A stretch of 64,000 bases of DNA, taken from the NCBI GenBank assembly GCA_965215265.1, contig OZ244048.1:1632001-1696000 (forward strand). Reading direction: 5' to 3'. Under the pieces are notes generated by a model. It was not told the origin of the DNA and made no database searches. It saw nothing but the letters and a program-made list of their open reading frames with translations. This document shows positions 611-61,998 of this stretch, one piece after another. Each line of letters opens with the position of its first letter. The first letter of the stretch is position 1. The DNA is from Candidatus Poribacteria bacterium (GTDB lineage: Bacteria; Poribacteria; WGA-4E; WGA-3G). The translations under genes were made by a program, and so were the position numbers.

Positions 611-935
611 ATTTTTGTATATTTCAGTTTTTGTATATTTCAGTTTTTGTATATTTCAGCCCTGTAACGCCTTAGGTTGTGTCAAATACTGTGAAAATCT
701 CGTCTGAGTTCTTCTATGTTTTTAGTGTCTCTGATTGTATATTTCAGCCCCATCAAGGGTTATGTTTTTTCGTATATCTCCGTCCCATAAAGGTTTATGT
801 TTTGTTAAATCCGATGTACATCTCGTGGCAGGTTAGGTATTCTTTATCTCTCCGTCAGGAGAGATAAGATTACCTTATCCTGCCAATCTATAGATACATC
901 TCGTTGGAGCCCTTCGTTGTTTTGAATCAAAAACG
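611..935. repeat. Mosaic cluster of family A arms with a family B palindrome (826-885)
   Basis: TTTTTGTATATTTCAG x3, further arms, GGCAGGTTAGGTATTCTTTATCTCTCC-GTCA-GGAGAGATAAGATTACCTTATCCTGCC. Confidence 0.8.
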
Positions 936-2012
936 CGGAGTGCTCGTCGAGGCAGCACAACGGCCCCTGCCAAATCGCCTTTTGAGCGTTTCGCGAATAT
1001 TCTTCATTCTGTCAAGGTTGAAGAGAAATGCCAAGCCTAATTTAATTGGAAAGGAAAACAGATCAAGTGCCAGTTTTATACGGTTTGGCCGGATGGAAAC
1101 CGAACTGTAGTTATGTTTTCTCATAACGGTTGCATTGAGCACTTGGCATAGGTAGATTTCAGCTGAACTGAGTCCATCTTTAGAGGCAGTGCTCTGCCAA
1201 CTGTTGGCTCGATCTGGATTTATCCCGAGTTGCTGCACATTATCTGCATTAACAGAAGATCCGACTTGGGGCACTTGAAGTAGTGTATCAGTATAAATAA
1301 TACCAACAAAATCACAAACTTGGCGAACAGTTGTTTCAGGATGCGCGAGAAGTTTCTCAAAGTAAATTGATAGAACCCGTTTACTGTCCACAAACCTATC
1401 GGCAGTCGTGACAGCAGTACGCCAGATTCGACTAATTGTTATCGGGTGATAATTAATCCAATCACGGAGCGTTTCTTTCATAGGCATATCGGTACCGCCA
1501 AGGAAGCGGCGTTTCCACTTCCGCTTCTGCGATAAAAGTACATCGCGCGGGTCACGTATCATGTTAATAATATGCGCTTCTGGATAAAGGCGAAGAATCT
1601 CATCAATGTAAAAGACATTACGCGGAGTCTGATCGCAGGGGATAGTTTTCTGATGCTCTGATGCCTCGTAAGAAAGAAACGCAAAAAAGAGGGCCGCCGG
1701 CGTTTCAGGAAATTCACACAATGCATCAAGGAAGGTCCGGGCGTTTTGTCTGTAACCACGTGGGTGAGCATGTGTCCGGTAGCCCTCCCGTTGAATGCAG
1801 AATAACTGTGAAGCCAATTCCTCTGCCGTCTTGTGAGATAACAAATTAGAGGCGGTTGTGGCTGAACATAACTGTCCGAAGAAATGGAGTTCCCCAAACG
1901 TATAAATCTCCGGATGTTTGCCCAAAATCCGTCCCATCATGGTTGTGCCGCTTCGGCTATTCCCTACCACAAATAGGATCTTATTTTGTTTTTTCGTATA
2001 TTTCAGTACCAT
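927..2012 (-). CDS. Sulfotransferase (Sulfotransfer_3-like)
   Basis: FVVGNSRSGTT PAPS-binding loop, DQTPRN, MIRDPRDVLLS 3'-PB motif; N-terminal MVLKYTKK is encoded by a repeat arm. Confidence 0.88.
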   Translation of the reverse strand: MVLKYTKKQNKILFVVGNSRSGTTMMGRILGKHPEIYTFGELHFFGQLCSATTASNLLSHKTAEELASQLFCIQREGYRTHAHPRGYRQNARTFLDALCEFPETPAALFFAFLSYEASEHQKTIPCDQTPRNVFYIDEILRLYPEAHIINMIRDPRDVLLSQKRKWKRRFLGGTDMPMKETLRDWINYHPITISRIWRTAVTTADRFVDSKRVLSIYFEKLLAHPETTVRQVCDFVGIIYTDTLLQVPQVGSSVNADNVQQLGINPDRANSWQSTASKDGLSSAEIYLCQVLNATVMRKHNYSSVSIRPNRIKLALDLFSFPIKLGLAFLFNLDRMKNIRETLKRRFGRGRCAASTSTPRF

Positions 2013-2030
2013 AAAGGTTTATGTTTTGCT

Positions 2031-2195
2031 TTTTTGTATACTAGAGCCCCACAACGGTTGATGTATTGTTAATCACTGTATAAATCTCGTCGGAGGTTCC
2101 TGATGTAATGAATCTAAACCTAGAAGAGCTCAGACGAGATTTGTGCTAAGGTTTACATAGCAGCAACTGGCATCGGGCTCCTATAGACGAAAGAA
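2031..2195. repeat. Family A full palindromic element
   Basis: TTTTTGTATA...AAATCTCGTCGGAG...GAATC...CTCAGACGAGATTT...TATAGACGAAAG. Confidence 0.85.
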
Positions 2196-2239
2196 CGAGA
2201 TTTGTGCGTCCACCCACCCAATTCCTTTCAAAGCGTTAA

Positions 2240-4015
2240 TCAGTGTTGGGCTTCTGTAGACAAAAGTACGAAAACTACCCCAAAGCTGTTTTTCGGAATT
2301 AAGAGTTGGCTACACTTCCCACTCCATTCCTGAATCTTCACCTCAATTTCTCCGGAGCCTTCCATTTCAGCGTTCCCTCCGTTTGTTGCCCTCAGGCTTT
2401 CATTCGCAACGTACCGGTAGGTAACTTGCCCATTGAACTGTTCTCCATCAATGACAAGATGCGGACGGTGTTCATCGCCGGTTCGATTGCTGACGAGAAT
2501 AAAAAGGCGCTCACTGCTTCCGATAGCTTGTGCCTGAATCCCAGTCATCTCTTTTCCGCTGTACTCAAGTTTGCCTTCAAGGAGAGGCAGATTTTGGATA
2601 GACAAACCGAACTGTGTCTCCGATTGTGCGAAAACTTCGCCGATTAATTGAAACGTAGGATAGACAGCACGTCGAATTGTTCTGCCACTAAAATTATCTG
2701 GAGAAGCTTTCGGTTCACCACCATATTTCCAAAAAGTGCCAGGTGTCGCGGGTGTTATCGGTGAAAAGGCGGGGAACCCTTTTCCGGGCCCAGCCAATAC
2801 ATGAAAGTTTGCTTGCGTCACTTGTGGGATACTCAACATTTTGAGAAAGAAATCGCCAACGTACATGGCATGGAGCTGCGTGTTCGCGACGCGATTCGCC
2901 GGGTTTGCGATATTCCATTCTGTCACCCACATCTCTTTGTCAGGGAATAATTGCTGGTAGTAATCCAGCGCATCGTCAACTGCGAAGTGAATCCAACCGA
3001 ACAGATAACCACGCATGTCCTCAATGTTTTTTTTGCGCACCGCTTTATACGCATAAACGTGAACGGTATAAGCATCATAAAAACTGGTATCTGCTGCTAA
3101 GCCGGCATCCCAGTTACGTTGGTACTTGTTTATCAACCAGCCTTCCTTGTGAAACGCAACCGGTGTGGCACAGACGGATACCTTGATATCAGGATTAACG
3201 GCTTTCATGGCTGCGGCATGTTTTTTGGCACGTGCCATATAAGTTTTAACAGAGGGATATTTGTTCAAGTAATGTGGCAAATAATACTCATTGCCGAGTT
3301 CCCAATGCGCAACCTGATACCCTTTGTTCTTTGCGTAGCGCACCCATGCGGCACTCTCTTTTGGGCTGCCTGTCCATAGATTGACAACAACAACAGGTGC
3401 TATGTTAAATGTATTACATAACCGCATAAAATCATCAAAAGCGATTCTGCCTTTCTTCCGCTTTTGAAGTTTAACGTAATTGTTCTTATTTCGTTTATTA
3501 AGTTTTGAACTGAGTGTTGCATCCATTTCATCCTCAAGAAATCCGGAGATCTGCCAATGATAGAAGTTGCCCACAGTGCCACCAGGGAAGCGCAATGTCT
3601 GCGGTTGAAGTGCTTGTGTTAAAGCGACAAAGTCAAAATCAATATATCCGTAATCTCCACTCATCATGTTTGTATTGAAGCCGTAGAGTTTTTTACGGAG
3701 GGGTTGTGTTGTGAGTGTGTCAATTTCCAAACGTGGGGCATCTGAGACAGGTTCTTGCTTGTCACAGCCAACACTCATTGATAGTATGATAACGCATCCA
3801 ATTGTAAGTTTTTGTATACTGGAGCCCAACCAAGCACGATGTTTTGAAAGGAATTGGATGGGTGGGCGCATAAATCTCGCCAGAGCCGTCCGATGTAATG
3901 ATTCAAATTTTTGTATATAGGAGCCCCGTAACGCTTTATGTTTTGTTAATGACTGTGTGAATCTTGTCGGAGGTTTTTGATGTTTAGATTCAATTTTTTG
4001 TAGACGAAAAATCAT
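2240..4015 (-). CDS. Clan GH-A glycoside hydrolase lipoprotein (GH79/GH51-like)
   Basis: LRFPGGT, WELGNE (acid/base), WVTEWN (nucleophile); lipobox SVGC; ATGA overlap with upstream gene; first ~70 aa are repeat-derived. Confidence 0.75.
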   Translation of the reverse strand: MIFRLQKIESKHQKPPTRFTQSLTKHKALRGSYIQKFESLHRTALARFMRPPIQFLSKHRAWLGSSIQKLTIGCVIILSMSVGCDKQEPVSDAPRLEIDTLTTQPLRKKLYGFNTNMMSGDYGYIDFDFVALTQALQPQTLRFPGGTVGNFYHWQISGFLEDEMDATLSSKLNKRNKNNYVKLQKRKKGRIAFDDFMRLCNTFNIAPVVVVNLWTGSPKESAAWVRYAKNKGYQVAHWELGNEYYLPHYLNKYPSVKTYMARAKKHAAAMKAVNPDIKVSVCATPVAFHKEGWLINKYQRNWDAGLAADTSFYDAYTVHVYAYKAVRKKNIEDMRGYLFGWIHFAVDDALDYYQQLFPDKEMWVTEWNIANPANRVANTQLHAMYVGDFFLKMLSIPQVTQANFHVLAGPGKGFPAFSPITPATPGTFWKYGGEPKASPDNFSGRTIRRAVYPTFQLIGEVFAQSETQFGLSIQNLPLLEGKLEYSGKEMTGIQAQAIGSSERLFILVSNRTGDEHRPHLVIDGEQFNGQVTYRYVANESLRATNGGNAEMEGSGEIEVKIQEWSGKCSQLLIPKNSFGVVFVLLSTEAQH

Positions 4016-5361: not shown

Positions 5362-5672
5362 TCTTTTGTTTTTTTGTATACAGGAGCCCGTAAAAGGCTG
5401 CTGCAATGTTAAATCCTTTACAAATCTCGTCGGAGATTTTCGATGCTATGATTCATTCTTTCGTCTCTCTCCGTACCATCAACGCCCAGTGGGTTGCGAG
5501 TAAAAGGTAATCCCAGTGGGTTGGCAAGTCTCGCAACTTATGATTTTGCTGGCTCGTGTGTAAATCTCGTTTTTTTGTATACAGGAGCCCGTTCAAAGGC
5601 TGCTGTTATGCTAAAACCTGTGTCGAGTTTGTTCATTGCATCAATTCGTGTCGTGCTCCTGTAGACGAAATA
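5362..5672. repeat. Mosaic family A/B cluster
   Basis: Arms starting ~5370, ~5457, ~5570; CCCAGTGGGTTG x2. Confidence 0.75.
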
Positions 5673-6819
5673 CTGTGTCCCAATGTGTCAAATCTTTGCC
5701 GAGCAATTCAGCCAATTGCTGATTAAACGGTTGAAAATAAGCGCGCAATTCTTGGTGCGTCTCGGGAGCAATTGGCGGTGGTGTCCACGGTTTGTCGTTC
5801 CAACTCAGAATTGCCTTTCTCAGTTTGTAGGCGGTAGCGTCTGGCACAAGTTTACGTATTGCACGTCTCAGTGGGTTGTGAGATGCCAAAAATTGTGTAA
5901 ACAGAAAGTTGAACCGCTCGGAACGCGGCATAGCAGCTTGGTTATGCCGCTGTGCTATTATTGGCTCAAAACCTGGGAAGATACCGAGTTGGCTAAAGAG
6001 CGCTTGGCAAATAGCGAGTGCATTGTCCTTCAAGTTTTCCGTAAAGATGAAGTGAAGCTGTTCAGCATCAAACTTCTCAATCAAATTTTTAACGTGAGGA
6101 TAGTAGGTACTGTTATAGCGATAGGCACACTGCCGCCATTTAAACCAACCCTCCTTAAGACGCGCCTCCTCCGCCGCAAGGGCCTCTTCAAACGTTTTAA
6201 GGGTTTCCCAGCCTCTACGCCGCGCCCACCAATAGGCTGAATATGCGCGTGCGACAGGCTCCCGTAAGAGAACAACAAGTTGTATCCTCGGGTTATGCTC
6301 ATAAATACGATGCATAATATTAGGTGAGTGCATCACCATCACATTTTTGGCAATGAGTTTTTTTGATTTTTTGTATATCTCGGTACCGTCATCGCGTTTG
6401 TTTTGATGGCTCGGTTTTTTGTCTATCTCCGTACCATCAATGTTTATGTTTTGAGGGTTCTGATGTAAATCTCGTCGGAGGTTTTCTCTGTTATGATTCA
6501 TAACATCGGGAGGCTCTAGCGAGGTTTGTGCTAGGGTGTCCATTGCAGCAGCCTTGTTGCGGGCTGCACTATCCGAAAAATCTCGTCGGAGGCTTTCTCT
6601 GTTTAGATTCACTGAATTCTCTTGTTCAACTGCAGAGAAAGTAAAGTATTTGGCATAAGCCCACTCGTACCCTCGTGAGTATTCCCGGTCTTGCAGGAAA
6701 AAGGTCATCTCAGGCTGTGAATGCGTCCTGATATCTGGATGCTGTGCCAAATAACGCAGCAGAGAAGATGTTCCGGCTTTCTGGACACCGATAATCATAA
6801 GTTGAATTGGCTTAACCAA
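5641..6819 (-). CDS. Sulfotransferase (heparan-sulfate ST-like domain) with in-frame repeat insertion
   Basis: IIGVQKAGTSSL, PEMTFF, LLREPVARAYS; ~85-aa insertion at ~6360-6615 relative to the neighbouring paralog. Confidence 0.85.
   Translation of the reverse strand: MVKPIQLMIIGVQKAGTSSLLRYLAQHPDIRTHSQPEMTFFLQDREYSRGYEWAYAKYFTFSAVEQENSVNLNRESLRRDFSDSAARNKAAAMDTLAQTSLEPPDVMNHNRENLRRDLHQNPQNINIDGTEIDKKPSHQNKRDDGTEIYKKSKKLIAKNVMVMHSPNIMHRIYEHNPRIQLVVLLREPVARAYSAYWWARRRGWETLKTFEEALAAEEARLKEGWFKWRQCAYRYNSTYYPHVKNLIEKFDAEQLHFIFTENLKDNALAICQALFSQLGIFPGFEPIIAQRHNQAAMPRSERFNFLFTQFLASHNPLRRAIRKLVPDATAYKLRKAILSWNDKPWTPPPIAPETHQELRAYFQPFNQQLAELLGKDLTHWDTVFRLQEHDTN
6358..6615. repeat. Family A arms inserted in-frame in a sulfotransferase
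   Basis: TTTTTGTATATCTCGGTACC, TTTTTGTCTATCTCCGTACC...AAATCTCGTCGGAGG...GATTC...AAATCTCGTCGGAGG. Confidence 0.85.
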
Positions 6820-6946
6820 AGTGCATTTCCTCGCAATTTTTTGTATATTTCAGCCCTATAAAGGCTGCTGCTTTGATAAGTCCCTTAGAAACCTCGCCAG
6901 AGCCATCTTATGCTATGCCTAAGTAACCTCAGTGCCGGGGCACGCT

Positions 6947-7876: not shown

Positions 7877-9189
7877 TCTGGTGCCCCCAATATTCTAACT
7901 CCTGTTTTGCTGAGCAAGTAGGTTAAGTTAGCAACAGCGATGAGTGCAGCTAGCGAAACAGAGAGTGCGATGCCAATAAGTCCCCACGTCGTTGCCAGTA
8001 AGGCCGCTATTCCGAAGTTTAAAACCGCCATCGTTACCATATTTCTAAAGACAAGGCGATAAGCCTTTTGTGCGTAGAGTCCTGCATTCAGAACCGGAAT
8101 CATACATGAAAAAACGATACCGAGCCCCAGCCAAACGAGGAGCGGTGATATCTGCTGCGCGTAGTGCTGAGCAGAAAAAAAAGATTCAACTATTTTCGGC
8201 TGGCCCAGCAGCAGCAAAAGCGCCGGAATCCCAACCCATACAGCAGCGCGCACGTTTCTATGGAGCGTTCGTGCCAGCCTCGATTTATCTGTTGCTACAT
8301 CATGCTGTGCCATCTCCGGCAAACCCGTTGTGGCGATGCTGATACCGATAACTGTTTGTATTGCAGAAAAGATGCGGAAAGCACTGTTGTAGCGTGTAAT
8401 CGCTCCGGTTCCGAGTCTACCTACCAAATACACCTCAACCAACAATCCAGAAATCACCCGCCGAATCGCGAAGCCGAGCGTCGGCAAGGAGATTGTGTTT
8501 TTTAAAGATTGCAATATATCTCTGGGGGACCACGCCAATTGGTAACGGTGCCCCGTTCGATAGATTCCAAAGTACAAAAGCCCGAAATATCCGAGAAACC
8601 CTACTGTATAAGCTATAGCTACCCACCGCGCGAGGGGACCTATATGCCAAAACAGCAAAAATGTTATTGTTGCCAATCCCGCAGGCAGTGCATTTCGCAA
8701 GGCAACGAGTCTGAAACGTTTTTGGCTATTCAAAAAGGCACCAAGTATCGTACTGCCGCAACCGAAGATAATGAGGGGTGCACAAAGCCGTAGAAATATT
8801 ATCATCTCTGACCTCGCTTCTGGCAATCCTCGTAGCAATCCGGATGCTATCCACGGGGCAACCGCTTCAACGAGAAGCATCATTCCAACCCCGATACAGA
8901 GCATGAAGTTAAGCAAGCAGTTCGTCCAACGTTGATATGCAGCACGGCTTAATGTCTTTTCTTGTTCAAGAAACAGCGGAACAAGACTAAATTTAGCACC
9001 TTCTCGGATAACGGTGTCGACTAACAGCGTGACCTTTAAGGCAGTAACCAAGGCATCGGCAGTGCTACTTAGGTTGAACCGGGTCGGAATCAATTTGACA
9101 TGTACGAGAAGTCCGAAACCCATTCCGCCTAGGGTAATTATCATTACCCATGAAGTCGGTAGTTGCAAGAAGCGTTTGTAGAATGCCAT
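7873..9189 (-). CDS. MurJ/MviN-like (MOP superfamily) flippase
   Basis: About 12 TM segments, ADAL...FSLVPLF, LNSQKRF; lies within a polysaccharide cluster. Confidence 0.75.
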   Translation of the reverse strand: MAFYKRFLQLPTSWVMIITLGGMGFGLLVHVKLIPTRFNLSSTADALVTALKVTLLVDTVIREGAKFSLVPLFLEQEKTLSRAAYQRWTNCLLNFMLCIGVGMMLLVEAVAPWIASGLLRGLPEARSEMIIFLRLCAPLIIFGCGSTILGAFLNSQKRFRLVALRNALPAGLATITFLLFWHIGPLARWVAIAYTVGFLGYFGLLYFGIYRTGHRYQLAWSPRDILQSLKNTISLPTLGFAIRRVISGLLVEVYLVGRLGTGAITRYNSAFRIFSAIQTVIGISIATTGLPEMAQHDVATDKSRLARTLHRNVRAAVWVGIPALLLLLGQPKIVESFFSAQHYAQQISPLLVWLGLGIVFSCMIPVLNAGLYAQKAYRLVFRNMVTMAVLNFGIAALLATTWGLIGIALSVSLAALIAVANLTYLLSKTGVRILGAPD

Positions 9190-9460
9190 TTTTTGTATAT
9201 TTCAGCCCTGTAACGCTTTTTTGTATATTTCCGTACCGTCAACGCTTATGTCGTGGGTACTCGTGTGTAAATCTCGCTCGTGGTCGGCAGGAAAAGATAA
9301 TCTTTGTCTCTCCTTGCAGGAGAGACAAGAAAACCTTACCTGCCGATCAGAGGCTTCTTATGTATTGAATCTAAACCTCGGAAGGCTCTGGCGAGGTTTG
9401 TAAAGTTTTTATCACAACATAGAGCGTTGATGTGCTACAGTATATGAAAAAGCGGTTTTA
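9190..9460. repeat. Family A element interrupted by a family B palindrome (~9284-9347)
   Basis: Arms at 9190 and 9218; GGCAGGAAAAGATAATCTTTGTCTCTCC...GGAGAGACAAGAAAACCTTACCTGCC; right arm to ~9450. Confidence 0.8.
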
Positions 9461-9498: not shown

Positions 9499-10494
9499 CT
9501 ACTTCCACCCCTCTGGCAGATTTTTGTGAATCTCAATATCAGTAAACCCAGTGGGAGGACGTGCGCCAATTGATTTCACCCATGTCGCCATTCTGTTCAA
9601 TCCTTCTTCAATAGAGACTTCAGCGTTAATCCCAAAAACCTTGCGAAATTTATCATGCGAACAATACGCGTGTTTCACCTCTTCTCTAGCCCGAAGGTGG
9701 ATTATCGGCACCTCTTTCCCCATCACTTTCATAACCAGTTCCGCTAACTCGTTAACACTCACCGGTTTATCGGAACCGACGTTAAAAATTTGTCCCGATG
9801 CGGCTGGTATGTCTACCGAGTGTGCAATGTGCGGGGCAACATCGGCAATATGCGTGTAAGCCCGGGTCTGCTCACCATCTCCAAATATGCGTAACGGTTC
9901 ATCACGCAGAATGTTATTCATGAAGATGCCGATAACATTTCGATACTTATCACTGATATTTTGTCCTTCGCCATATACGTTATGGGGACGGAAGATTGTG
10001 TAATCAAGGTCAAAGAGTCGTTTAGAGACAGCGAGTTCTTGTTCTACCGCATATTTGGCAATTCCGTAGGGATCCTCTGGCATAGGTATTAGTTCTTCAT
10101 GCATCGGCAATTGGTTTGTCCCATACACTGCAATGGAAGAGCTGAACACAAAATGCTTGACGTTGTAATTTACCGCTGCGTTTATCAGATTGACACTGCC
10201 GATGAGGTTGTTTTGATAGTTAAATCGCTTGATAAAGTGGCTCAGGCCCTCGGCAGCATAAGCTGCAAGGTGATAGATATAACTGAATTCGTACTGTTCA
10301 CAGAGTTGATTAACCAGCGATACATCCAAGATACTGCCATCGACGAACGTCGCCTCGGGGTTCATGTTCTCATGAAAACCACCGCTCAAGTCGTCAAGCA
10401 CGACAACCTGATGATTCAGATCGCGTAGAAGTTCGTCAACGACGTGTGCACCCATAAAGCCTGCACCGCCGGTAACCAATGAGTTTTTTTTCAT
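9499..10494 (-). CDS. NAD-dependent nucleotide-sugar epimerase/dehydratase
   Basis: TGGAGFMG, YGIAK (YxxxK), HNVYG, GDGEQTR. Confidence 0.92.
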   Translation of the reverse strand: MKKNSLVTGGAGFMGAHVVDELLRDLNHQVVVLDDLSGGFHENMNPEATFVDGSILDVSLVNQLCEQYEFSYIYHLAAYAAEGLSHFIKRFNYQNNLIGSVNLINAAVNYNVKHFVFSSSIAVYGTNQLPMHEELIPMPEDPYGIAKYAVEQELAVSKRLFDLDYTIFRPHNVYGEGQNISDKYRNVIGIFMNNILRDEPLRIFGDGEQTRAYTHIADVAPHIAHSVDIPAASGQIFNVGSDKPVSVNELAELVMKVMGKEVPIIHLRAREEVKHAYCSHDKFRKVFGINAEVSIEEGLNRMATWVKSIGARPPTGFTDIEIHKNLPEGWK

Positions 10495-10551
10495 TTTTCG
10501 TCTCTCTCCGTACCATAAAGGTTTATATTTTGTTAATGCCTGTATAAATCC

Positions 10552-11760
10552 TCACAAAAATTGTTGATAGACGCCCATAATTTTTTGGTAATGAATGTCT
10601 GCATTAAACTCGGTTTCCATTTTCAGACGACCGGCGACTCCCATTTCTATTGCTTCGGTTTTATTTTCGTACATCCACAACAATTTTTCACGCAACGCCT
10701 CTGTTCCACCGGAGGGAACGAGAAAGCCATCAACACCATCCATAATTAACTCAGGAATCCCGCCAATGTCAGCACCGATGACCGGTTTCCCATACGCATA
10801 CGATTCTAAAACCGACATCGGACAATTTTCATACCATTCGGAGGGCAACAGTGTGCATAAACTATTCCGAATCAATTCACGGAGTTCATCACCCTGTTTA
10901 AATCCCAGCAGTTGAATATGAGTGCAGTCGTTCTGTCTTACGATTTTCTGAACTTCGGGCATCGCCTCGCCGTCACCGACAATATAGAGCGGTACCTCCT
11001 TCAATGGGGCCGCTGCTTCTATCAACGTCAAAATTCCTTTACTCCGATGCAACCGACCGAAATAGAGTAGGTAGTCTCCACCTATAAAACTCGGTGTGAT
11101 GTCCCTTACATCAACAAAGTTATGAACGGTCGAGATTTTCGCCTGAGGAATGCCATGTGCAATCATTTTCTTTCGCAAGAAGTGCGACACGGAGATGAAA
11201 TGGTCAAATTTATCAACTGCCCCCAGCATGCGTGAGAAATAAGCTTCTGTAACGCTTAGTGCTGTACGCGCGAATGAATTCCTGTTACACCGCTTCGGAA
11301 GTGCACGCCAAAAGTGTTTGCCGGCACATGCCTCGCAAATCTCATCGTTCGACAGATGACTATAGACAGGACATGTCAATTTATACTCGTGCAATGTCTG
11401 AATCAGTGGAATACCTGCTTTTTTGAGAACCCCCAAAATTGAGGCGGTGATTTTACCATAGTAGATATGAAAATGTGCAATATTCACGTCGGTGTCATCT
11501 AATAGCCGTCGCATCGATTTAACCGCCTCGCCTGAGTATAAAAACCGGATGGGATCGCCCACCCCTGGATGCTCAAAATCAGCCCCGCGTGGAAAATAGC
11601 GAGACCACTCTGTCGGTTCGTTTGCCGGACTAGAGGCTGTAAACGGAACAACGCGGTGCCCATGCTTTTGCAACAAATCTGCCATCGTAAAAAAGTACCG
11701 GTCAGAACCGCCACGGATATGGTAGTTTTGTGAAACATTCAGAATTGTCAGCATAGGCAT
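10552..11760 (-). CDS. Glycosyltransferase family 4 (GT-B)
   Basis: YFGRLHRSKG, PSEWYENCPMSVLES, IGGIPE; start placed after the GGAG RBS. Confidence 0.92.
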   Translation of the reverse strand: MPMLTILNVSQNYHIRGGSDRYFFTMADLLQKHGHRVVPFTASSPANEPTEWSRYFPRGADFEHPGVGDPIRFLYSGEAVKSMRRLLDDTDVNIAHFHIYYGKITASILGVLKKAGIPLIQTLHEYKLTCPVYSHLSNDEICEACAGKHFWRALPKRCNRNSFARTALSVTEAYFSRMLGAVDKFDHFISVSHFLRKKMIAHGIPQAKISTVHNFVDVRDITPSFIGGDYLLYFGRLHRSKGILTLIEAAAPLKEVPLYIVGDGEAMPEVQKIVRQNDCTHIQLLGFKQGDELRELIRNSLCTLLPSEWYENCPMSVLESYAYGKPVIGADIGGIPELIMDGVDGFLVPSGGTEALREKLLWMYENKTEAIEMGVAGRLKMETEFNADIHYQKIMGVYQQFL

Positions 11761-11787
11761 ATTCGTATATCTCCGTCCCATCAACGC

Positions 11788-11949
11788 TTTTTCGTCTATT
11801 GGAGCCCTATCAAGGCGTAGGTATTGCTAAATCTTGTGTACATCTCGTCGGAGCCGCTTTATGTTTAGAATCATAGCATAAGAAAGCTCTGACGAGATGT
11901 ACATCGGAGTTAACAAAACATAAACATGATAGGGCACCTGTATACGAAC
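11788..11949. repeat. Family A full palindromic element
   Basis: TTTTCGTCTA...ACATCTCGTCGGAG...GAATC...CTCTGACGAGATGT...TATACGAA. Confidence 0.85.
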
Positions 11950-11964
11950 ATTCTCTGTGTTGTA

Positions 11965-12954: not shown

Positions 12955-13240
12955 TTTTTTGTCTTTTCGTATATCTCCGTACCATCAATGCGTTATGTAT
13001 TGTTAATCACTGTGTAGCTCTCGTCGGAGGTTCCTTAGGTAATGAATCAATACATCGTTTGTATTGTTTCAGTATAGTTTACCTTCTGTCTTGAATTTTG
13101 TCAAGTTTTCACGTCTTTTGTATATCTCCGTACCATAAAGGCTTATGTTGTGTTAAATCCGCTGTAGCTCTCGCCAGAGATTACTTAGGTAATGTCTTTT
13201 AAAGTCAAAACATCGAAGGGCTCTGACGAGATTTGTTTTA
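12955..13240. repeat. Two partial family A elements
   Basis: TTTTCGTATATCTCCGTACCATCAA...CTCGTCGGAGG and TTTTGTATATCTCCGTACCATAAAG...CTCTGACGAGATTT. Confidence 0.8.
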
Positions 13241-13310
13241 AATGCAATAATATGTTAAAATAACGATAATGTATTTTTAAAGTAACAAGCTCAGACAGGA
13301 ATTCCAAAAA

Positions 13311-49291: not shown

Positions 49292-50224
49292 ATGGCCGAG
49301 CAGCATATCTACATCCCCGACAAAAAATTTTGGCGGCGAACCTTGAGTGTTATTATGCTGGTCCCATTAGTTCTCCTAATTATATATTTCGGGGATTGGC
49401 TTTATCTGCTGCTTGTGTCCGTGGTGGTATTAATGATGCAGATCGAGTACTGTCGACTGGCGCGGCATTTCAGTGGACATTTTAATGCCCGTTTAGAAGC
49501 CGCGCCTTACATGAATCCGGTAGTCCCTGGACTTCTAACGCTTGCTTTCTGTGCTTTAGCATATTTTGCTCCCGTTTTGCCACAAACAGCAAATGGAAAG
49601 GGCACTGCCGAACTCGTTCTATTTGGATGCTTTACCTTTGTACTTATCTATGTTTTCGCTGAAAGCATCTTCCGTGGAAAAGTTGAGGGAGAGTTGATAA
49701 CCGTTACCTTAAAGTTTACAGGGATTATTACCATCGGCTGGGCTTTAGGCTACCACCTCATCCTGTTACGAAATATCCATATAGAAGGGGCACCGGGCAC
49801 TAACACCGAGGTAGGTAGGAATCTCATATTTTTGCTCGCTGGCACCATTTGGTGCAGCGACACGGGGGCATACCTCATCGGGAGAATTGTCGGGAAGCAT
49901 AAATTGGGCACGCCGATTAGTCCGAGGAAAACGGTTGAAGGTACGATTGCGGGGTTAGTTTTGGGTACCTTGGTAGGTTTTGGACTTGGCGTGACCCTCC
50001 TGCGTGACACGCTCTCTTTGTTCAATGCTGCATTTATAGGCTTGCTATTGAGTGCTTTGGGACAACTCGGTGACCTGAGTGAATCGCTGATGAAACGGAC
50101 TGCAGGTGTTAAAGACTCGGGCGATGTCATCCCTGGACACGGTGGATTCCTTGACAGATGCGACAGCTTAATCTTTAGTGCCCCTGTTCTTTATTATTAT
50201 ATAGAATTTTTTCGTATATTATAG
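49292..50224 (+). CDS. cdsA: Phosphatidate cytidylyltransferase
   Basis: DTGAY, ISPRKTVEG, KDSGDVIPGHGGFLDRCDS. Confidence 0.95.
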   Translation: MAEQHIYIPDKKFWRRTLSVIMLVPLVLLIIYFGDWLYLLLVSVVVLMMQIEYCRLARHFSGHFNARLEAAPYMNPVVPGLLTLAFCALAYFAPVLPQTANGKGTAELVLFGCFTFVLIYVFAESIFRGKVEGELITVTLKFTGIITIGWALGYHLILLRNIHIEGAPGTNTEVGRNLIFLLAGTIWCSDTGAYLIGRIVGKHKLGTPISPRKTVEGTIAGLVLGTLVGFGLGVTLLRDTLSLFNAAFIGLLLSALGQLGDLSESLMKRTAGVKDSGDVIPGHGGFLDRCDSLIFSAPVLYYYIEFFRIL

Positions 50225-50336
50225 CACGTCACAAGTTGCTGTAATCAACACCTTAGCACAAATCTCGTTCTTTCGTCTACAGGAGCCCGTTAAAGGCTGC
50301 CCACTGGGCGTTGACGGTACGGAGATATACAAAAAG
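50205..50336. repeat. Family A arms at the cdsA-dxr junction
   Basis: Overlaps the cdsA stop; ends GGTACGGAGATATACAAAAAGAT-ATG. Confidence 0.8.
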
Positions 50337-50338
50337 AT

Positions 50339-51526
50339 ATGAAGCACATCGCGATTCTCGGTAGCACGGGTTCAATTGGGAAGAACGCGCTCAGCGTTAT
50401 TGAAATGCACTCAGAGGAATTTAACGTGGTGGGGCTCGCTGCAAACCGGGACGTTGATACACTTGAACAGCAGATTCGCACCCATCGTCCCAAGTTGGTT
50501 GCTCTGAATCAAGAAACCGCTGCGGTACATTTGCGCCAACGTATCCGCGACCTTAACGGTGTAGAAGTACTCGCCGGCACTGATGGGCTCAGGGCAGTCG
50601 CGACGATGAACGAAGCAGAGCAGGTATTAGAAGGAATAGGCGGAAGCACAGGTTTACTCCCTACATTGGCTGCTATAAACGCTGGAAAAGACATCGCCTT
50701 TGTTAACAAAGAGGTAATGGTAATGGGAGGGAAACTTGTCATAGACGCAGTCCAGACAAACGGAGTTAACTTAATTCCGATAGATGGGGAAATGAGTGCA
50801 ATTTTCCAGTGCTTAGAAGGACAACGGAATCGCCAAACCGACATCCATCGCCTCCTGATTACCGCATCCGGTGGCCCGTTTCGCGAAATGCCCAAAGAAG
50901 CACTCTATAGTGTAACACCACAACAGGCACTTAAACATCCTAATTGGGATATGGGGGCGAAAATTACAATCGACTCTGCGACTATGATGAACAAGGGACT
51001 TGAGGTTATTGAAGCCAAATGGTTGTTTGATGTCCCCCTCTCAAAAATCGATATTGTTATTCACCGGGAGAGTATTATCCATTCTATGGTTGAATGGACA
51101 GACGGCTCAACGCTCGCGCAGCTGGGGCCCACGGATATGCGCGTCATGATTCAATATGCTTTGAGTTATCCGCACAGACTCTCTACGCCTGTTCCGCGTT
51201 TAGAGTTGTGTGAGCTGCAAGCATTACACTTTGAACCGGTGGATAGTGAAAAATTTCCGTGCATTTCACTCGCCTATACTGCGGCGGAAGTCGGGGGGAC
51301 GCTTCCAGTTGTACTCAGCAGCGCGGACGAGGTAGTCGTCGACGCTTTTCTGGAAAATCGTATCGGATTTATGGATATTCCAACTATCCTACGAACCGTT
51401 ATGGATAAACATGTTGTGATTACACATCCAGACCTCGCTGATATCCTTGCTGTTGATGAGTGGGCAAAATCGGCAACACGTTTTTGTATATCTCAGCATC
51501 TTTCGTCTACAGGAGCCCAACAATGA
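50339..51526 (+). CDS. dxr: 1-deoxy-D-xylulose 5-phosphate reductoisomerase
   Basis: LGSTGSIG, TASGGPF, HPNWDMG, DSATMMNKGLE. Confidence 0.95.
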   Translation: MKHIAILGSTGSIGKNALSVIEMHSEEFNVVGLAANRDVDTLEQQIRTHRPKLVALNQETAAVHLRQRIRDLNGVEVLAGTDGLRAVATMNEAEQVLEGIGGSTGLLPTLAAINAGKDIAFVNKEVMVMGGKLVIDAVQTNGVNLIPIDGEMSAIFQCLEGQRNRQTDIHRLLITASGGPFREMPKEALYSVTPQQALKHPNWDMGAKITIDSATMMNKGLEVIEAKWLFDVPLSKIDIVIHRESIIHSMVEWTDGSTLAQLGPTDMRVMIQYALSYPHRLSTPVPRLELCELQALHFEPVDSEKFPCISLAYTAAEVGGTLPVVLSSADEVVVDAFLENRIGFMDIPTILRTVMDKHVVITHPDLADILAVDEWAKSATRFCISQHLSSTGAQQ

Positions 51527-51681
51527 TTGATGTAATGTTTAGTCCTTTTTTCGTCTACAGGAGCCCAATACGGATTCATGTGGCAGGATAGGTATTCTTT
51601 GTCTCATGGCAAGAAAACCGAACCTGCGAACACACAAGTTATCAATACATAAATGTTGATGGTACGGAGATATACAAGAAA
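51479..51681. repeat. Family A/B mosaic at the dxr-rseP junction
   Basis: Encodes the dxr C-terminus; ends GGTACGGAGATATACAAGAAA-ATG. Confidence 0.8.
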
Positions 51682-53490
51682 ATGGAATTTCTACAGTCAT
51701 TTTTTTCAATCCTTCCAAATATTAAAACAGTGCTACTTGCAATTATCCCGCTCGGTTTCCTTATTTTTATACATGAACTCGGCCATTTTTATGCAGCGAA
51801 ACGGGCTGGAATTAAAGTCAACACCTTCTCCCTCGGTTTCGGTCCAAAACTAATCGGGTTTCAGCGCGGGGTAGGTTTTACAACACTCATAGACGGATTA
51901 CGCTTATCCCGTGCGGCTAAAGCTGCCGAGGAGGCAGCAGGATCCGGGGAATCTACGAATCCGGGTGCGGATGTCTCTTCTCTATCTACCACCGACACCG
52001 AGTACCGGCTCTCTTTGTTGCCGTTTGGCGGGTATGTTCAAATGGAAGGTGAAAATCCGAAGGAGCAGACTGGTGCTGTAGGCGAATTTGGGAGTGCTTC
52101 GCTTGGCAACCGGGCTTTTGTTGTTGCTGCGGGCCCCGCCGTGAACTTGCTGTTCGGGGTTTTAGCATTTTGGCTGGTTTTCGCTATTGGCTTGAATCAG
52201 CGTTCGGTTACTTTTATTGAAGGATTAACAGGTAAGCACTTAGAGGGAAAAAAAGAGGGACCTCAATTAGGAGCGGTTGCTCCTGAAGGGCCCGCTGCGC
52301 ACGGCGGATTGGAGCCCGGCGATATCATTCTGTCCGTAAACGACACACAAATTGAAAACTGGGCTGCATTTCACATTAAAATTTACACAAGCCCCGGACG
52401 AGCGTTAGAAATCGAAGTAGAACGCCAAGGCACTCGTCAAACCTTCACTGTCGTACCTAACATTGTACCAAGTGCAAGGGGAGATACCGGCGAACTGCAA
52501 GTCATTTCCAAAAGCGATATAATGGTAACGGATGTTGCCGCAGGGAGTTTAGCAGAACAGGCAGGTATCCAAGTAGGGGATAGAGTTGAGACGATTAACG
52601 GCGAAAAAATTTATAACGTTCCAGAATTTGGTTCGGGAATTTGGGCAGCCGAAGCGATTTGGCTGTCTCAGCACTACCAGTCCCTTTACCGCTCAATTCA
52701 GCAGAATCCTAACGAGTTTCAACTCGGTATTCGCCGAGGCGAGACTGCAAAAGTTTTGAAAATGCCGGTCACTTGGGAACTCACGGCGGTGGTTCAACCC
52801 GATGCGGAAGTTGTTGGCTTGCAAAATGGGGACACGCTTCTCACCCTCAATGGAAATGCCGTGGATAGTGAGACGCTTTCAGCAGGCTTGAAAGCAGCGG
52901 CAAGCAAACCGATTGAATTGCGCATACGGCGAGGCAATTCAGAAAAAACGGTAACGCTATCTCCGAACGTAAAAGCGAGAGCTGAGAGTGCACAAGCAAC
53001 AAGCAGGCTATATGGATTCGGATGGACGACAACGCTCAGCGGAATCTCATTTGGGGAACCGCCGCGGGTCGTGCCAACCTATACTGTATTTACAGCGTTC
53101 GGAAAGGGACTTGAAACGTCATGGCTGACCGTTGCCTCCATCGGAAGAACCCTAAAGCAGCTAATCAATAGAGAAGTTTCGCCGAGGTATCTCACCGGAC
53201 CTATCGGCATAGCCAACGCGACAAGCCGGATGTTTAATTTCGGGTTCACGATTGCTCTGTTTTTTATTGGCTTTATTAGCATCAACCTCGCCATTGTGAA
53301 TTTGTTGCCAATTCCGATCGCCGACGGAGGGCATTTGCTATTTTTTGCGGTTGAGAAAATCCGAGGACGGCCGATAAGCCTCGAAAAACAGGCAATCGTC
53401 CAGCATGTAAGCATTATTCTCTTAATTGCCCTATTCCTGTATATCACTTGGTTTGATGGGCTCTCCTTAATTGATGACATCCGTAACTAA
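51682..53490 (+). CDS. rseP: RIP metalloprotease RseP with multiple PDZ domains
   Basis: HELGH, GGYV, AGPAVN, NLLPIPIADGG. Confidence 0.93.
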   Translation: MEFLQSFFSILPNIKTVLLAIIPLGFLIFIHELGHFYAAKRAGIKVNTFSLGFGPKLIGFQRGVGFTTLIDGLRLSRAAKAAEEAAGSGESTNPGADVSSLSTTDTEYRLSLLPFGGYVQMEGENPKEQTGAVGEFGSASLGNRAFVVAAGPAVNLLFGVLAFWLVFAIGLNQRSVTFIEGLTGKHLEGKKEGPQLGAVAPEGPAAHGGLEPGDIILSVNDTQIENWAAFHIKIYTSPGRALEIEVERQGTRQTFTVVPNIVPSARGDTGELQVISKSDIMVTDVAAGSLAEQAGIQVGDRVETINGEKIYNVPEFGSGIWAAEAIWLSQHYQSLYRSIQQNPNEFQLGIRRGETAKVLKMPVTWELTAVVQPDAEVVGLQNGDTLLTLNGNAVDSETLSAGLKAAASKPIELRIRRGNSEKTVTLSPNVKARAESAQATSRLYGFGWTTTLSGISFGEPPRVVPTYTVFTAFGKGLETSWLTVASIGRTLKQLINREVSPRYLTGPIGIANATSRMFNFGFTIALFFIGFISINLAIVNLLPIPIADGGHLLFFAVEKIRGRPISLEKQAIVQHVSIILLIALFLYITWFDGLSLIDDIRN

Positions 53491-53815
53491 TTTTCGTCTA
53501 CTGCAGCACAACAAAGGCTGCTGCAATGCTAAAATTTGTACAAATCTCGTTTTTTTCGTCTACAGGAGCCCGTTAAAGGCTGCTGTAATGTTAACCTTAG
53601 CACAAATCTCGTCGCCCGCCCACCCAAATCCTTTGATGTTATGATTCAATACATCGAAGGGCTCAGACGAGATTTACACAGTGATTAACACAACATCAGC
53701 CATTTAGGGGCTGCACCATACGAAAGAATTCGTATATCTCCGTACCATCAACGTCTATGTTTTGATAGTTCGTGTGTAAATCTCGTCGGAGCCTCTTGAT
53801 GTTTAGATTCAAAAA
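53490..53815. repeat. Family A array at the rseP-udg junction
   Basis: Two tandem left arms, centre, right arm, then a further left arm containing the candidate udg start. Confidence 0.85.
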
Positions 53816-54488
53816 AGAATACTTACAACTTCTTGCGACTGTGAGGGAATACGTGGAAGAACAACTTGAACTCGGTTTCATGGAGCTACAGGAGCCTAAA
53901 CAGGAATCTCCTTACGCTAACTTCGACCTGATCCAGTTAGATGCAGATGCTCAAAACTGCACCCGATGCGTTTTGCACGAAAGCCGAAACAGCGTCGTTT
54001 TCGGATTTGGAAATCCTAATGCTTCGCTGATGTTTGTCGGAGAAGCACCTGGGGCGGATGAAGACCGGCAAGGCGAACCTTTTGTCGGACGCGCCGGGCA
54101 ACTGCTGACCCGAATTATTGAGGCGATGAAGTTTACACGTGACAATGTTTACATCGCTAACGTGCTAAAATGCCGTCCACCGGGAAACAGAAATCCAGGC
54201 CCGGATGAGATTGAAATGTGTCGTCCATATTTGGAACGGCAGATAGAATTGATTCACCCCAAAGTGATTGTCGCACTCGGGAGTTTTGCAGCGAAGTTGT
54301 TAATTAATACGACTACAGGTATTTCAGCACTTCGCGGACAGTTTCATACGTACTCGAAAGCCGGAAAGCAGGAGAATGCACCACGCATCATGCCTACCTA
54401 TCATCCTGCATATCTGCTCCGGAATCCTAGTGCAAAACGCGACGTGTGGGACGATATGAAAAAGGTCTTAGATTTCTTAGAAAAATGA
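53799..54488 (+). CDS. Uracil-DNA glycosylase family 4 ([4Fe-4S])
   Basis: [29 protein letters not shown]; candidate start ATG lies in the centre of a repeat element. Confidence 0.92.
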
Positions 54489-58239: not shown

Positions 58240-60213
58240 TTAAGGAGTAACAGCCCTCGCGCACCGGAACCCGACACCGCCGTACGTGAACGTCGGGGTA
58301 AGCCTGCTGCGACCGGCGACACGCAGTTTTCGTGTAGGACTGTTCCAACTACCGCCACGCAACACGCGAGAGGAAGAGATCATAGCGGTCATATAGCGAT
58401 TTACAATCTCAGCCACATTCACGAGCGTACTGCCAGACACACCACTCAGCGGATTCCGAGACGGAGACTCAGAATAGAAATCCGCATCATACGCATCAAG
58501 ACACCACTCGTAAACGTTGCCTGCCATATCATACAGCCCATACCCGTTCGCAGCATAACTCCCCACAGCCGTTGTATTGCCTACATTCCTACCGTGGTTG
58601 GCGTTATTAGGCGTTATCGTGTCCCCCCACGGGTATTTCTTACCAACTAACCCACCGCGTGCCGCTTTCTCCCACTCCGCCTCCGTTGGCAGACGCTTAC
58701 CTGCCCACACGGAATATGCCATCGCACCATACCACGACACATACCTCACGGGATGGTTCGCCTTACCCACTGGATAGTTATTACCTTCCCAAAGCATTAG
58801 GTACTTACCATTGTGGAAGGCATCCGGAATCTGCGTCTTCTGCCACTCGGGGTTCGCCAGCAGAAAACTTTTATACTCGGCGTTCGTCACTTCGTGCATA
58901 TCCATATAGAACGCGTCCACATACACCGTCCGCACAGGCTGCTCGTCACCATCGGCCTCGGCATCGTTGCTGCCCATCTGGAACTCGCCCGCGGGGATGA
59001 GTGCCATCCCTGCAGGCACCGATGTTGCACTCACACAACGAAACCCGGTGAAGCTTGCCGTGAACGTCGGCTCCCTCTTGAACCTATCGGCGACGCGCTG
59101 GTAACGCACATCAGCACGCCAATTACCACCCCGCAACACCCGCATTGACTTCACATTTACGCCAATGTAGTCCGATACAATCTCAGCCACATTCGCGAGC
59201 ATACTACCAGACACACCACACAGCGGATTCCGAGACGGAGACTTTTTATAAAATTTCTTATCCCACGCATCAAGACACCACTCGTGAACGTTCCCGGCCA
59301 TGTCGAACAGCCCATACCCGTTCGCAGCATAACTCCCCACAGAAGTCGTATCGTCTACATTCCTATCGTAGTTCGCATCGTTCGGCGTTATCATGTCTCC
59401 CCACGGATACTTCAGACCTGCCTCCCCACCGCGTGCCGCTTTCTCCCATTCCGCCTCCGTTGGCAGACGCTTCCCTGCCCACGCAGCATAAGCCATCGCC
59501 GCATGCCACGACACATACCTCACAGGATGGTCCCCCTTACCCACTGGATAGTTATTACCGTCCCAACGGTTTAGGTAAGAACCAAAGTGGAAGGCATCCG
59601 AAATACGCCCCTTCTGCCACTCGGGATTCGCCAGCACAAAAGTTTGATACTCAGCGTTCGTCACTTCGTGCGTATCCATATAGAACGCGTCCACATGCAC
59701 CGTATGCACAGGCTGCTCGTTATCCCGCGCATCAGCATCGTTGCTGCCCATCTGGAAGGTGCCGCCGGGGATGAGCACCATCCCTGCAGGCGCAGACGCG
59801 GGAGCCGCAGGCGCAGACGCGGGAGCCGCAGGCGCAGACGCTGCACCGTTAAACCCCGCCGCTACTAACACCACGTCTCCTATATCCACTACACTATTCC
59901 CGTTCATATCTGCCGAACTGTTACCGCGGGTTCCCAGGCGCGCCGCTACCAATGCCAAATCCACTATATCCACACGGCCATCACCATTCACATCCGCATC
60001 ACCTTTGACAGCCGAAAGCATGCCGACATCCGCAGGCAGGCTTACCCCTTGCGCACACACAGCGCCAACACTCCCTAAACTCAAAACTATACACGCCAAT
60101 ATTGCTAACATCACTGACACGCTGTTATTAGTCATTACAGTCCTCCAAACCTTTGACACTTTTTTAGCGGACATTACAGTCCTCCAAACCTTTGACACTT
60201 TTTTATTACACAT
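58240..60213 (-). CDS. Secreted dockerin-like + two FGE-sulfatase (CLec-fold) domains; putative DGR target
   Basis: Signal peptide; DVNGDGRVDIVD and DMNGNSVVDIGD loops; ASAPAAP linker repeats; 2 FGE domains, terminal one ending GFRCARAVTP. Confidence 0.88.
   Translation of the reverse strand: MCNKKVSKVWRTVMSAKKVSKVWRTVMTNNSVSVMLAILACIVLSLGSVGAVCAQGVSLPADVGMLSAVKGDADVNGDGRVDIVDLALVAARLGTRGNSSADMNGNSVVDIGDVVLVAAGFNGAASAPAAPASAPAAPASAPAGMVLIPGGTFQMGSNDADARDNEQPVHTVHVDAFYMDTHEVTNAEYQTFVLANPEWQKGRISDAFHFGSYLNRWDGNNYPVGKGDHPVRYVSWHAAMAYAAWAGKRLPTEAEWEKAARGGEAGLKYPWGDMITPNDANYDRNVDDTTSVGSYAANGYGLFDMAGNVHEWCLDAWDKKFYKKSPSRNPLCGVSGSMLANVAEIVSDYIGVNVKSMRVLRGGNWRADVRYQRVADRFKREPTFTASFTGFRCVSATSVPAGMALIPAGEFQMGSNDAEADGDEQPVRTVYVDAFYMDMHEVTNAEYKSFLLANPEWQKTQIPDAFHNGKYLMLWEGNNYPVGKANHPVRYVSWYGAMAYSVWAGKRLPTEAEWEKAARGGLVGKKYPWGDTITPNNANHGRNVGNTTAVGSYAANGYGLYDMAGNVYEWCLDAYDADFYSESPSRNPLSGVSGSTLVNVAEIVNRYMTAMISSSRVLRGGSWNSPTRKLRVAGRSRLTPTFTYGGVGFRCARAVTP
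60133..60213 (-). repeat. 39-bp tandem duplication copying RBS+ATG
   Basis: AAAAAAGTGTCAAAGGTTTGGAGGACTGTAATG x2; in-frame ATGs at 60213, 60174 and 60135. Confidence 0.85.
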
Positions 60214-60325
60214 TATATACCTCCAAATGCCGCGAAACACTCGCGGCTAAAAATACGAGGGGTTGGAGGCGAGACCGCCGCGTCAAACGCAGACGGCACA
60301 CACACCCTTACACCTCTCTCACGCT

Positions 60326-61017: not shown

Positions 61018-61157
61018 TGCGGGTGGGCAGGCGTGCCGAAGCACGCTGTCCACGCACAAATAGGTGAATAGCCAATACGAGCCCACGGTAGGGTGCCGGG
61101 CGATTGTCGCCTCGGCGCCGTTGACATAAGCCGACTCGGCTTGTTAGCGCACCCGCA
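61018..61157 (-). ncRNA. Candidate structured RNA/leader
   Basis: Closing stem TGCGGGTG/CACCCGCA enclosing AAGCCGAGTCGGCTT, GGCGA-CAA-TCGCC and GCGTGC-TTCG-GCACGC. Confidence 0.4.
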
Positions 61158-61200
61158 CACAGAAGCCCGGGGCTCCGACAAGGGGTGCCGCACGCATCAG

Positions 61201-61250
61201 AAAAAAAGCCTGCAACGGCCTCCACCGTCCGAGACGGTAGGCGTGCAGGC
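61201..61250 (-). terminator. Intrinsic terminator/attenuator upstream of the CTD gene
   Basis: GCCTGCA-CGCCT-ACCGTC-TCG-GACGGT-GG-AGGC-CGT-TGCAGGC followed by T7. Confidence 0.7.
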
Positions 61251-61570
61251 GTGAGAAAGCAGCGACTAAGGGTGATGCGGCTTGAGTTAATAAAATGGTT
61301 AACGTACGTAAATCTGGGGGGGGTCAATCGTCTTAACAGGCAGTTAAAACACACGACAGCACGGTATATGCACGCGTTCGCGCAAAGATGCCAACCCCGC
61401 AGCACAGGGCAGCTCACTCTGCTTATGGGATACACGGACTCTCGGTGTTTCATCTGTTTTATCTCTTTCAGCTCAAAACAGAGAGCGTCTCCGACGAGAT
61501 TTACATCGGATTTCAGATAACATAAACCCGTATAGTACCGAGATAGACAAAATTCTGATTCGAGTGAATG

Positions 61571-61807
61571 CATTTTAGCCGAAAACAACACTTTTTGGCA
61601 AACTTTTTTTTGCCTGACTCAAAAGTTGTTTTGCATTATCGCACAATGAACATTTTTTTGTCAACTCTTTTTTCCGAAATAAAAAAGAGACGAACACATT
61701 TTAGCCGAAAATCACACTTTTTGGCAAACTTTTTTTTGCATGACTCAAAAGTTGTTTTGCATTATCGCATAACGAACGTTTGTTTGTCAACTCTTTTTTT
61801 CAAATTT
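61571..61807 (-). repeat. ~110-bp direct duplication, each copy with two sigma-70-like promoters
   Basis: Copies 61571-61680 and 61697-61807; each has TTGACA-18-GATAAT and TTGCCA-18-TAAAAT on the minus strand. Confidence 0.75.
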
Positions 61808-61998
61808 TTTCGTCTCTTTCAGCACGTCACCGACGGTTTTTTGGTCTCTTTCAGCGCTTAAGACAATGCAAAACAGAGATAGACTCTGGCGACATTTGGA
61901 CAAGGCTTATCAAAACATCAGACGACGGTGATGGACTCAAATAGACAAAAATCGGATTTCACATTACATAAACCCGTATAGTACCGAGATAGACAAGT

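Follow-up and report, generated by a model that had tools for sequence, protein, structure and literature searches.

A non-autonomous mobile repeat family adjoining truncated terminase small-subunit sequences in a Candidatus Poribacteria genome

Many gene junctions in a 64,000-nucleotide stretch of the genome of a Candidatus Poribacteria bacterium of sponge-symbiont type (assembly GCA_965215265.1, contig OZ244048.1, positions 1,632,001 to 1,696,000; the window) carry copies of a short repeat, here called the arm, which occurs alone, in tandem and in tail-to-tail pairs (dyads). The evidence supports the view that the arm is a lineage-specific, non-autonomous mobile repeat, and some of its copies continue into truncated 3' ends of a gene that probably encodes a phage terminase small subunit (TerS). 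As to how it spread, we tentatively prefer, as a judgement close to evenly balanced, that the ~85-bp arm, which is also the stretch just behind TerS, is multiplied by one-sided, single-strand copying from its T-rich head, via an enzyme that would act in trans and was not found in this genome. The genome (G000) is a single 4.83-Mb contig in which the window is G000:C1:1632001-1696000 and holds a sulfotransferase/polysaccharide operon, nitrate genes, FGE-sulfatase genes and the rpsB-tsf-frr-cdsA-dxr-rseP-udg-priA string; G001, G002, G004, G006, G086 and G153 are genomes of relatives and g5 is a related genus.

The arm is numbered from its head, with TTYGTMT at positions 4-10, the core ATCTCG-TCGGAG at 55-66 and the tail at G81-T84. 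A hidden Markov model (HMM) trained on 20 window arms, with the reversed genome as control, matched the window 47 times, the whole genome 837 times and the control not at all; when merged, these matches form 25 loci in the window and 525 in the genome (69,658 bp, 1.4% of the genome), lying both between and inside genes. An earlier, sequence-only reading of the window had noticed about 20 such loci and proposed this genome-wide count; its remark that copies are nearly absent from 13.3-23.8 kb and 36-45.5 kb also holds, with 0 HMM matches at 13,236-23,861 and 31,036-45,944. A matrix of the head alone found 981 heads in the genome vs 45 in the control, and the loci are clustered (326 gaps <3 kb vs 147 expected). 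Arm length is nearly invariant, since 346 of the 483 near-full matches share one exact length and 440 are within ±1, and yet 335 of the 346 same-length arms are distinct over positions 1-84, at a mean identity of 0.64 and with 29 two-state columns. The fixed length and variable, two-state positions described at the outset are therefore genuine, while the consensus of ~62 bp given with them was right only in part: it occurs with ≤10 mismatches at 24 places in the window and at none in the reversed window, but it has 65 letters, and the real unit is one arm of ~85 bp, conservation spanning ~85-89 bp, through the dyad centre. All four gametes are present in 377 of 406 column pairs, r2 drops from 0.17 to 0.00 with distance, and the two-state pattern is probably a recombination mosaic between copies. 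The heads sort into three loose types, A, B and C. None of the arm's reading frames is kept open, stops occurring in every frame at roughly shuffle level, and a ~10.5-bp spacing of conserved Gs, seen by eye, found no support from autocorrelation.

The link to a phage gene comes from the DNA behind the arm tails, which clusters into groups of 15, 6 and 4 loci continuing into one coding sequence on the opposite strand. It encodes the C-terminal part of a protein of 240 aa; the intact gene is at G000:C1:3557480-3558202, and its stop codon falls in the arm tail. The continuation into truncated TerS 3' ends, not visible from the window, leaves the earlier interpretation incomplete. By ungapped extension, TerS pieces are found on 39 of 341 full arms (28/151 A, 10/92 B and 1/98 C) and, apart from the whole gene, they are variably truncated, 14-116 bp long. 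A TerS-fragment HMM gave 21 matches with E<0.5, none more than 103 bp from an arm, partly by construction, the model having been seeded beside arms. A rough pairwise pN/pS (nonsynonymous to synonymous polymorphism) of ~0.12 over 10 pieces suggests that they derive from many once-functional alleles. Sequence and structure comparisons agree in predicting that the 240-aa protein is a TerS, with a helix-turn-helix (HTH) plus a helical core: it matches PHROG 4102 (E=1.4e-11), its AlphaFold model (pLDDT 85) has terminase small subunits as top BFVD fold matches, the best PDB match of the model is an SPP1-like TerS, a weak one (E=0.067), and a homologue in G153 precedes and overlaps a Terminase_3 gene for the terminase large subunit (TerL). 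No TerL was found in G000, with Terminase_6N covered, the intact copy has none beside it, and no integrase, replication module, att sites or capsid genes were recognised next to it. In the runs X6 and X8 a contig departs from the TerS gene at codon 100 and joins a fragment-plus-arm unit (one joint each), which suggests that the TerS locus differs among strains. As a separate observation, a broken gene (L051:1390-2427), interrupted by arms at G000:C1:3553735-3553931, resembles in our view an IS982 transposase, a name that Pfam did not give.

The spacing of heads describes how arms are combined. Between same-strand heads 61 is the commonest distance (77 cases), lesser maxima lying at 18, 28, 35, 87 and 95, and convergent heads peak at 164, 171, 172 and 232; head-to-head spacing is not above control. 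The 61-bp tandem junction is also present in G001, and solo arms and 61-bp tandems are as typical of the family as dyads. The ~160-bp palindromes reported earlier do exist as three dyads at 2030-2194, 11788-11951 and 45945-46108, but they are tail-to-tail pairs with several centres (164, 171, 172 bp and others), and over 76 positions the two arms of each are complementary at only 61%, 55% and 50%, respectively. Within dyads, arm identity is 0.588 vs 0.625±0.009 in type-matched random pairs, none of 59 dyads exceeds 0.74 identity vs 18.6% of random pairs, and AA dyads are absent vs 4.6 expected. Dyad arms are thus anti-selected for complementarity, and dyads are not hairpins. The fold energies of single arms, in DNA and RNA mode, are close to those of column shuffles and chimeras, with no conserved fold, and Rfam gave no match at the gathering threshold. 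A strong 27:47 covariation results in no conserved fold and was taken as subfamily linkage.

Mobility is documented by filled and empty paralogous sites within the genome, including six empty paralogues of window 61472-61554, and by G001, where the rpsB-udg junctions and the polysaccharide operon are free of these insertions; the comparison with orthologous empty sites, suggested by the first reading, thus found such sites there. No reliable empty-site joint was obtained from contigs over window 45,600-54,200, where repeat cross-mapping was dominant. Furthermore, five dyad pairs are 92-99% alike amid unrelated flanks, which indicates that chromosomal composites serve as templates; 43 matches of ≥110 bp are limited to the element, and near-identical neighbours lie within 100 kb in 17 of 91 cases vs 6% expected. 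The GC skew of the genome is irregular, with no interpretable replication-strand bias of the copies. No target-site duplication (TSD) accompanies these events, in line with what had been noted by eye: 112 two-headed loci are at chance for k=2-9 in four registers, and none was seen at empty sites. There is instead a weak target consensus, NTCR: of 591 outer heads, 112 have it ending at position -1, against 11-26 for upstream offsets, and with start codons removed the figure is 82 of 520. The core CTCG of older arms is a hot insertion target, yielding the 61-bp tandems, and insertions often delete or replace target DNA. Copies share the head, and their other end varies: some stop within the arm, with peaks close to 18, 28, 35 and 61 bp, some in the partner arm, and some after 14-116 bp of the TerS 3' end. 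Of the initial inference of an element like a miniature inverted-repeat transposable element (MITE), a REPIN or a Rickettsia palindromic element (RPE), the lineage-specific mobile repeat stands, with empty sites, copied dyads and in-frame insertion as in RPEs, whereas the MITE/REPIN palindrome does not, there being no TSD, no fold, no RAYT/TnpA and arms that are anti-complementary. The same rpsB-priA junctions carry, at several places, other repeats in G002, G004, G006 and G086 (GTAG-type or other, each relative having its own).

The copies in the window are the following (strand given where one was assigned; ORF, open reading frame):
611-832, plus strand: head stack (611, 627), 80-bp arm (643), 38-bp piece and 61-bp unit (766), then a second repeat family.
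1990-2194: truncated 39-bp unit and the 165-bp tail-to-tail dyad 2030-2194.
3808-3993, plus strand: two tandem arms near the start of ORF 2240-4015 (minus strand).
5370-5672: arm, interrupted arm and more heads at the junction of the sulfotransferase and Wzy-like genes; the G001 junction is short and arm-free.
6367-6611: arm cluster in frame within sulfotransferase 5641-6819 (minus strand).
6837-6932, plus strand: one arm and the first bases of a partner arm; the G001 site is cleanly empty, with no duplication.
9189-9451: 28-bp unit with its head directly at the MurJ-like gene's ATG, followed by a 60-bp unit and an inverted arm.
10494-10550, plus strand: truncated 57-bp arm, head at the ATG of the epimerase gene.
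11759-11951: short unit and the 164-bp dyad 11788-11951.
12963-13235: two arms and a tail remnant, upstream of the operon.
23862-23948, minus strand: solo arm with its head directly at the ATG of the MFS gene (23948-25303).
30917-31035, plus strand: interrupted arm near the start of ORF 29564-31078 (minus strand).
45945-46108: 164-bp dyad in the rpsB leader, missing in G001.
47214-47708: rpsB-tsf array with arms, nested second family, 171-type dyad and 61-bp unit.
48324-48681: array between tsf and frr, made of truncated units that face either way; in G001 this junction has 15 bp and no arm.
50208-50336: cdsA-dxr array in place of the G001 cdsA stop region, supplying GGAG before the dxr ATG.
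51480-51681: dxr-rseP array in place of the last dxr codons and the original rseP Shine-Dalgarno.
53490-53814: rseP-udg array with 61-bp units, 176-bp dyad, head-to-head junction and an arm whose GGAG-N7-ATG replaces the G001 udg start.
61472-61554, minus strand: solo arm with the six empty paralogous sites.
61806-61996: arms and truncated heads at the end of the arm-bearing region.

The second repeat family (GTGGCAGG-type) is nested in arms, often at the core dyad (window ~830-900, 5485-5530, 46270-46290, 47310-47500 and 51570-51625). The hairpin of the rpsB leader, window 45780-45940, contains a core-like insert, older and degenerate, that G000 and G001 have in common and G002, G004, G006 and G086 do not share.

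Arms affect the genes they adjoin. Of 662 outermost heads, 39 have the ATG of a long ORF precisely at position 0, other offsets having 1-13; a GGAG-type motif is found in 41 of the 68 heads that abut a start, compared with 256 of 878 other heads. At co-directional junctions, heads of type A and B point down the host transcript (183:54 and 95:42) and those of type C do not (75:97). In sequence comparison with G001, arms supply the start of udg, replace the Shine-Dalgarno of rseP and truncate dxr, and the cluster in sulfotransferase 5641-6819 adds about 82-85 in-frame residues that are missing from the orthologues in 5/5 relatives. Genome-wide, 36 arm loci lie inside called ORFs, not all of them checked. 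In G001, an arm array with a 147-bp period lies in frame within an 828-codon ORF (L018:1440-1700).

Among the 112 genomes of the family, the strict core pattern occurs in 10, with 294 matches in G000, 55 in G004, 6 in G001 and 1-4 in 7 of 65 g5 genomes; a looser scan of the phylum reached 37 of 176 genomes, those added having mostly single matches near control level. The head-core-tail geometry is kept, with different middles, in G001, G004 and g5, and in G004 the two-ended dyads are regular. The sister genus has arms, and no TerS pieces were found there. Seven viral and at least 17 non-Poribacteria matches to the core pattern were set aside as chance single matches.

The copying model that we tentatively prefer is favoured by a combination of traits that marks one-ended transposition of the IS91 type: one end is fixed and lies downstream of a gene, the far end varies, TSDs are lacking and the target is a tetranucleotide. 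Nick-and-copy chemistry of the HUH type, resembling that of IS91 or REPINs, would act in trans on a parent that may have been a phage satellite or a prophage remnant with TerS as its last gene. Copies land just after NTCR without duplication, often replacing target DNA; recombination between them would make the two-state mosaic, and selection would keep those that supply a ribosome-binding site (RBS) or start codon or preserve the frame, and would avoid perfect palindromes. The TerS gene reads toward the fixed end of the arm; in IS91-type elements tnpA reads toward oriIS. Several results weigh against this model. No Y1_Tnp was found in G000, and so no RAYT/TnpA; searches for Y2_Tnp and Zn_Tnp_IS91, run with no positive control, gave 0 of 5 and 0 of 112 genomes; and an HUH enzyme would have no conserved hairpin to recognise. 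Where 38 TerS pieces stop, at their variable ends, tetranucleotides are not enriched (0 vs 0.4 expected) and only 3 of the 38 end at ATCTCG(A), whereas IS801 fragments end at a consensus tetranucleotide (PMC3189936). The parent was not found in viral contigs, metagenome contigs (one IS3 match), genome contigs, INPHARED or PLSDB. TerS was found neither in G001 or G004 nor among 82 G004-type core matches; since G004 has the same geometry without it, TerS may be a passenger of the G000 lineage, and this absence is the main result against TerS as the origin of the whole family.

Other candidates for the enzyme were sought as well. A RAYT flanked by the repeat was not found in relatives either, with no core motif at 12 of their Y1 loci. 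No IS110 and no Ku were found in G000, and among multi-copy families none stood out as a transposase flanked by the repeat, the DDE and serine families not having been searched; the best candidate there is a methyltransferase-like family with arms on both flanks in 4/8, and the Rpn-like families score low. G000 has many near-identical restriction-modification modules, plus about 60 genes in several multi-copy families, which we take to be Rpn-like. Its one tyrosine recombinase is broken, with no arms seen in its listed neighbourhood; with PF00589, for which all 14 controls were positive, no intact tyrosine recombinase, hence no XerC/D, was found in G000, G001, G002 and G004.

A two-ended parent, similar to a satellite or an integrative and conjugative element, is possible though on balance unlikely. 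Type C arms would be its left end and A/B arms its right end, its movement would be due to a tyrosine or serine recombinase or to some other transposase that leaves no TSD, dyads would be internally deleted derivatives and TerS pieces deletion remnants. The pairing of C with A or B in 41 of 59 dyads and the occurrence of TerS pieces on 38 of 243 A/B arms vs 1 of 98 C arms fit such a parent as well as they fit copying, and to this extent they too count against the copying model; the lack of AA dyads, the copying of whole dyads head to head and the stereotyped dyads of G004 point the same way. However, 23 solo C tails have no shared interior behind them, the arms of 27 AC dyads reassort (Mantel p=0.16), solo arms insert alone, and the recombinase searches in G000 described above are unfavourable within the families that they covered. 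The terminase itself could instead have been the agent, if the arm were a pac-like signal behind TerS, the terminase cut made the fixed end, TerS drew arms together and the chromosome captured the ends. This is quite improbable in our estimate: the overlap of the arm with the TerS 3' end and the many diverged TerS alleles suit it, and there are pac precedents, since the literature places pac inside the gene for TerS in phage P22 (PMC9611059) and, in T4, at the 3' end of gene 16, where it takes part in recombination and amplification (PMC10893049). On the other hand, G000 lacks TerL and Ku, no arm stands at the TerS genes of Poribacteria prophages, target preference and chromosomal dyad copying are unexpected from end capture, and G004 offers no TerS link. 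A related proposal, that the arm is a packaging or recombination signal of TerS-only phage satellites, of which terminase machinery or a satellite Rep and not a transposase seeded about 840 copies, we consider improbable.

Retroposition of an RNA ending at an A-run, copied by the reverse transcriptase (RT) of the genome, would account for a fixed 3' end with variable 5' truncation and for A/B heads pointing down the host transcript, and G000 does have one RT. This enzyme (L038:867-2600) belongs to a diversity-generating retroelement (DGR), with Avd, a template repeat and A-specific changes in the variable region, and has no arms nearby, so that the RT flanked by intact arms envisaged earlier was not found. 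In the implied RNA, adenines at several positions show 98-100% conservation, the TerS pieces bear purifying selection and not A-mutagenesis, and G001 has arms and no RT; this route is very unlikely. In the window, FGE-sulfatase domains at ~32457, 33296, 34145 and 58371 (regions 32327-35746 and 58240-60240) match the DGR template with changes mostly at A positions, and the genome has 36 matches of this kind. That the arm is a cis-element of the host, retained because it works as a structured RNA or as a mini-ORF for translational coupling, is scarcely credible and, as an origin, already largely refuted: the ATG at position 0 and the enrichment of GGAG-type motifs agree with it, whereas the fold energies, the Rfam result and the stops in all frames do not, and the same junctions are empty or carry unrelated repeats in relatives.

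In comparison with described systems, the arm works like the one-ended fragments of IS91, occupies the niche of REP, BIME and BOX elements, and departs from each family in a defining trait. Two reports describe one-ended events of IS91, without TSD and with tetranucleotide targets, and IS91/IS801 products that, like the arm, have a fixed end downstream of a gene, a variable other end, a tetranucleotide target with T second and CTCG as junction word (PMC13181058; PMC3189936). Unlike them, the arm has no Y2 transposase found by the uncontrolled searches mentioned, adjoins TerS, shows no tetranucleotide enrichment at its variable ends and forms hundreds of mosaic copies. HUH copying has been proposed for the spread of REP/BIME (PMC8266576). 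Like the arm, REP, REPIN and BIME units are intergenic and of high copy number, form dimers, preferably heterodimers, as well as clusters where genes adjoin, and have YGTC/YGTA as terminal word; CGTC REPs likewise lack a known enzyme (PMC3733652; PMC8266576). The arm differs in its 85 bp without stem-loop, in its TTYGTMT head instead of GTAG, in the absence of a RAYT from the genome and in the TerS link; with respect to CGTC REPs (a tag plus an 8-9 bp stem), C is at position 9 in 23% of arms and there is no stem, although G004 heads are partly similar, with CGTC plus a ~5-bp stem. Pneumococcal BOX elements and classical MITEs share with it modular arms, tandem inner units, nesting with other repeats and effects on neighbouring genes (PMC3049150), but the arm has no TSD and no stable fold, its solo copies move, and no insertion sequence with matching ends was found among multi-copy families, DDE not searched. 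The likeness to phage TerS with pac and to TerS-only satellites is in the HTH TerS, a conserved stretch at the gene 3' end and no adjacent TerL (PMC9611059; PMC10893049), whereas here no integrase, replication or capsid genes flank the intact copy and the stretch is amplified about 840-fold in the chromosome. No description of a Poribacteria intergenic palindromic repeat was found in open-access full text, supplements not covered, nor, in the same full text, of a MITE-like repeat derived from a terminase small subunit or prophage. RPEs insert in frame into intact genes, as the arm does in the window sulfotransferase, but the arm is mostly intergenic, weakly palindromic and one-ended. SaPIs and PICIs are TerS-only phage satellites.

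The origin and movement of small bacterial repeats, such as BOX, CGTC-REPs and RPEs, are largely open. In this family, remnants of a parent gene are still attached to copies, one end is constant, and there are a target word and unfilled sites, so that its origin is traceable and its enzyme can be sought. If the parent was a TerS-bearing phage or satellite, phage packaging modules would be linked to the birth of interspersed repeats; if the arm was a packaging signal, a viral signal would have turned into a chromosomal selfish element that rewrites RBSs and protein ends and could direct host DNA into capsids. In this organism, the family remodels core genes, from the start of udg and the end of dxr to the RBS of rseP and the length of a sulfotransferase.

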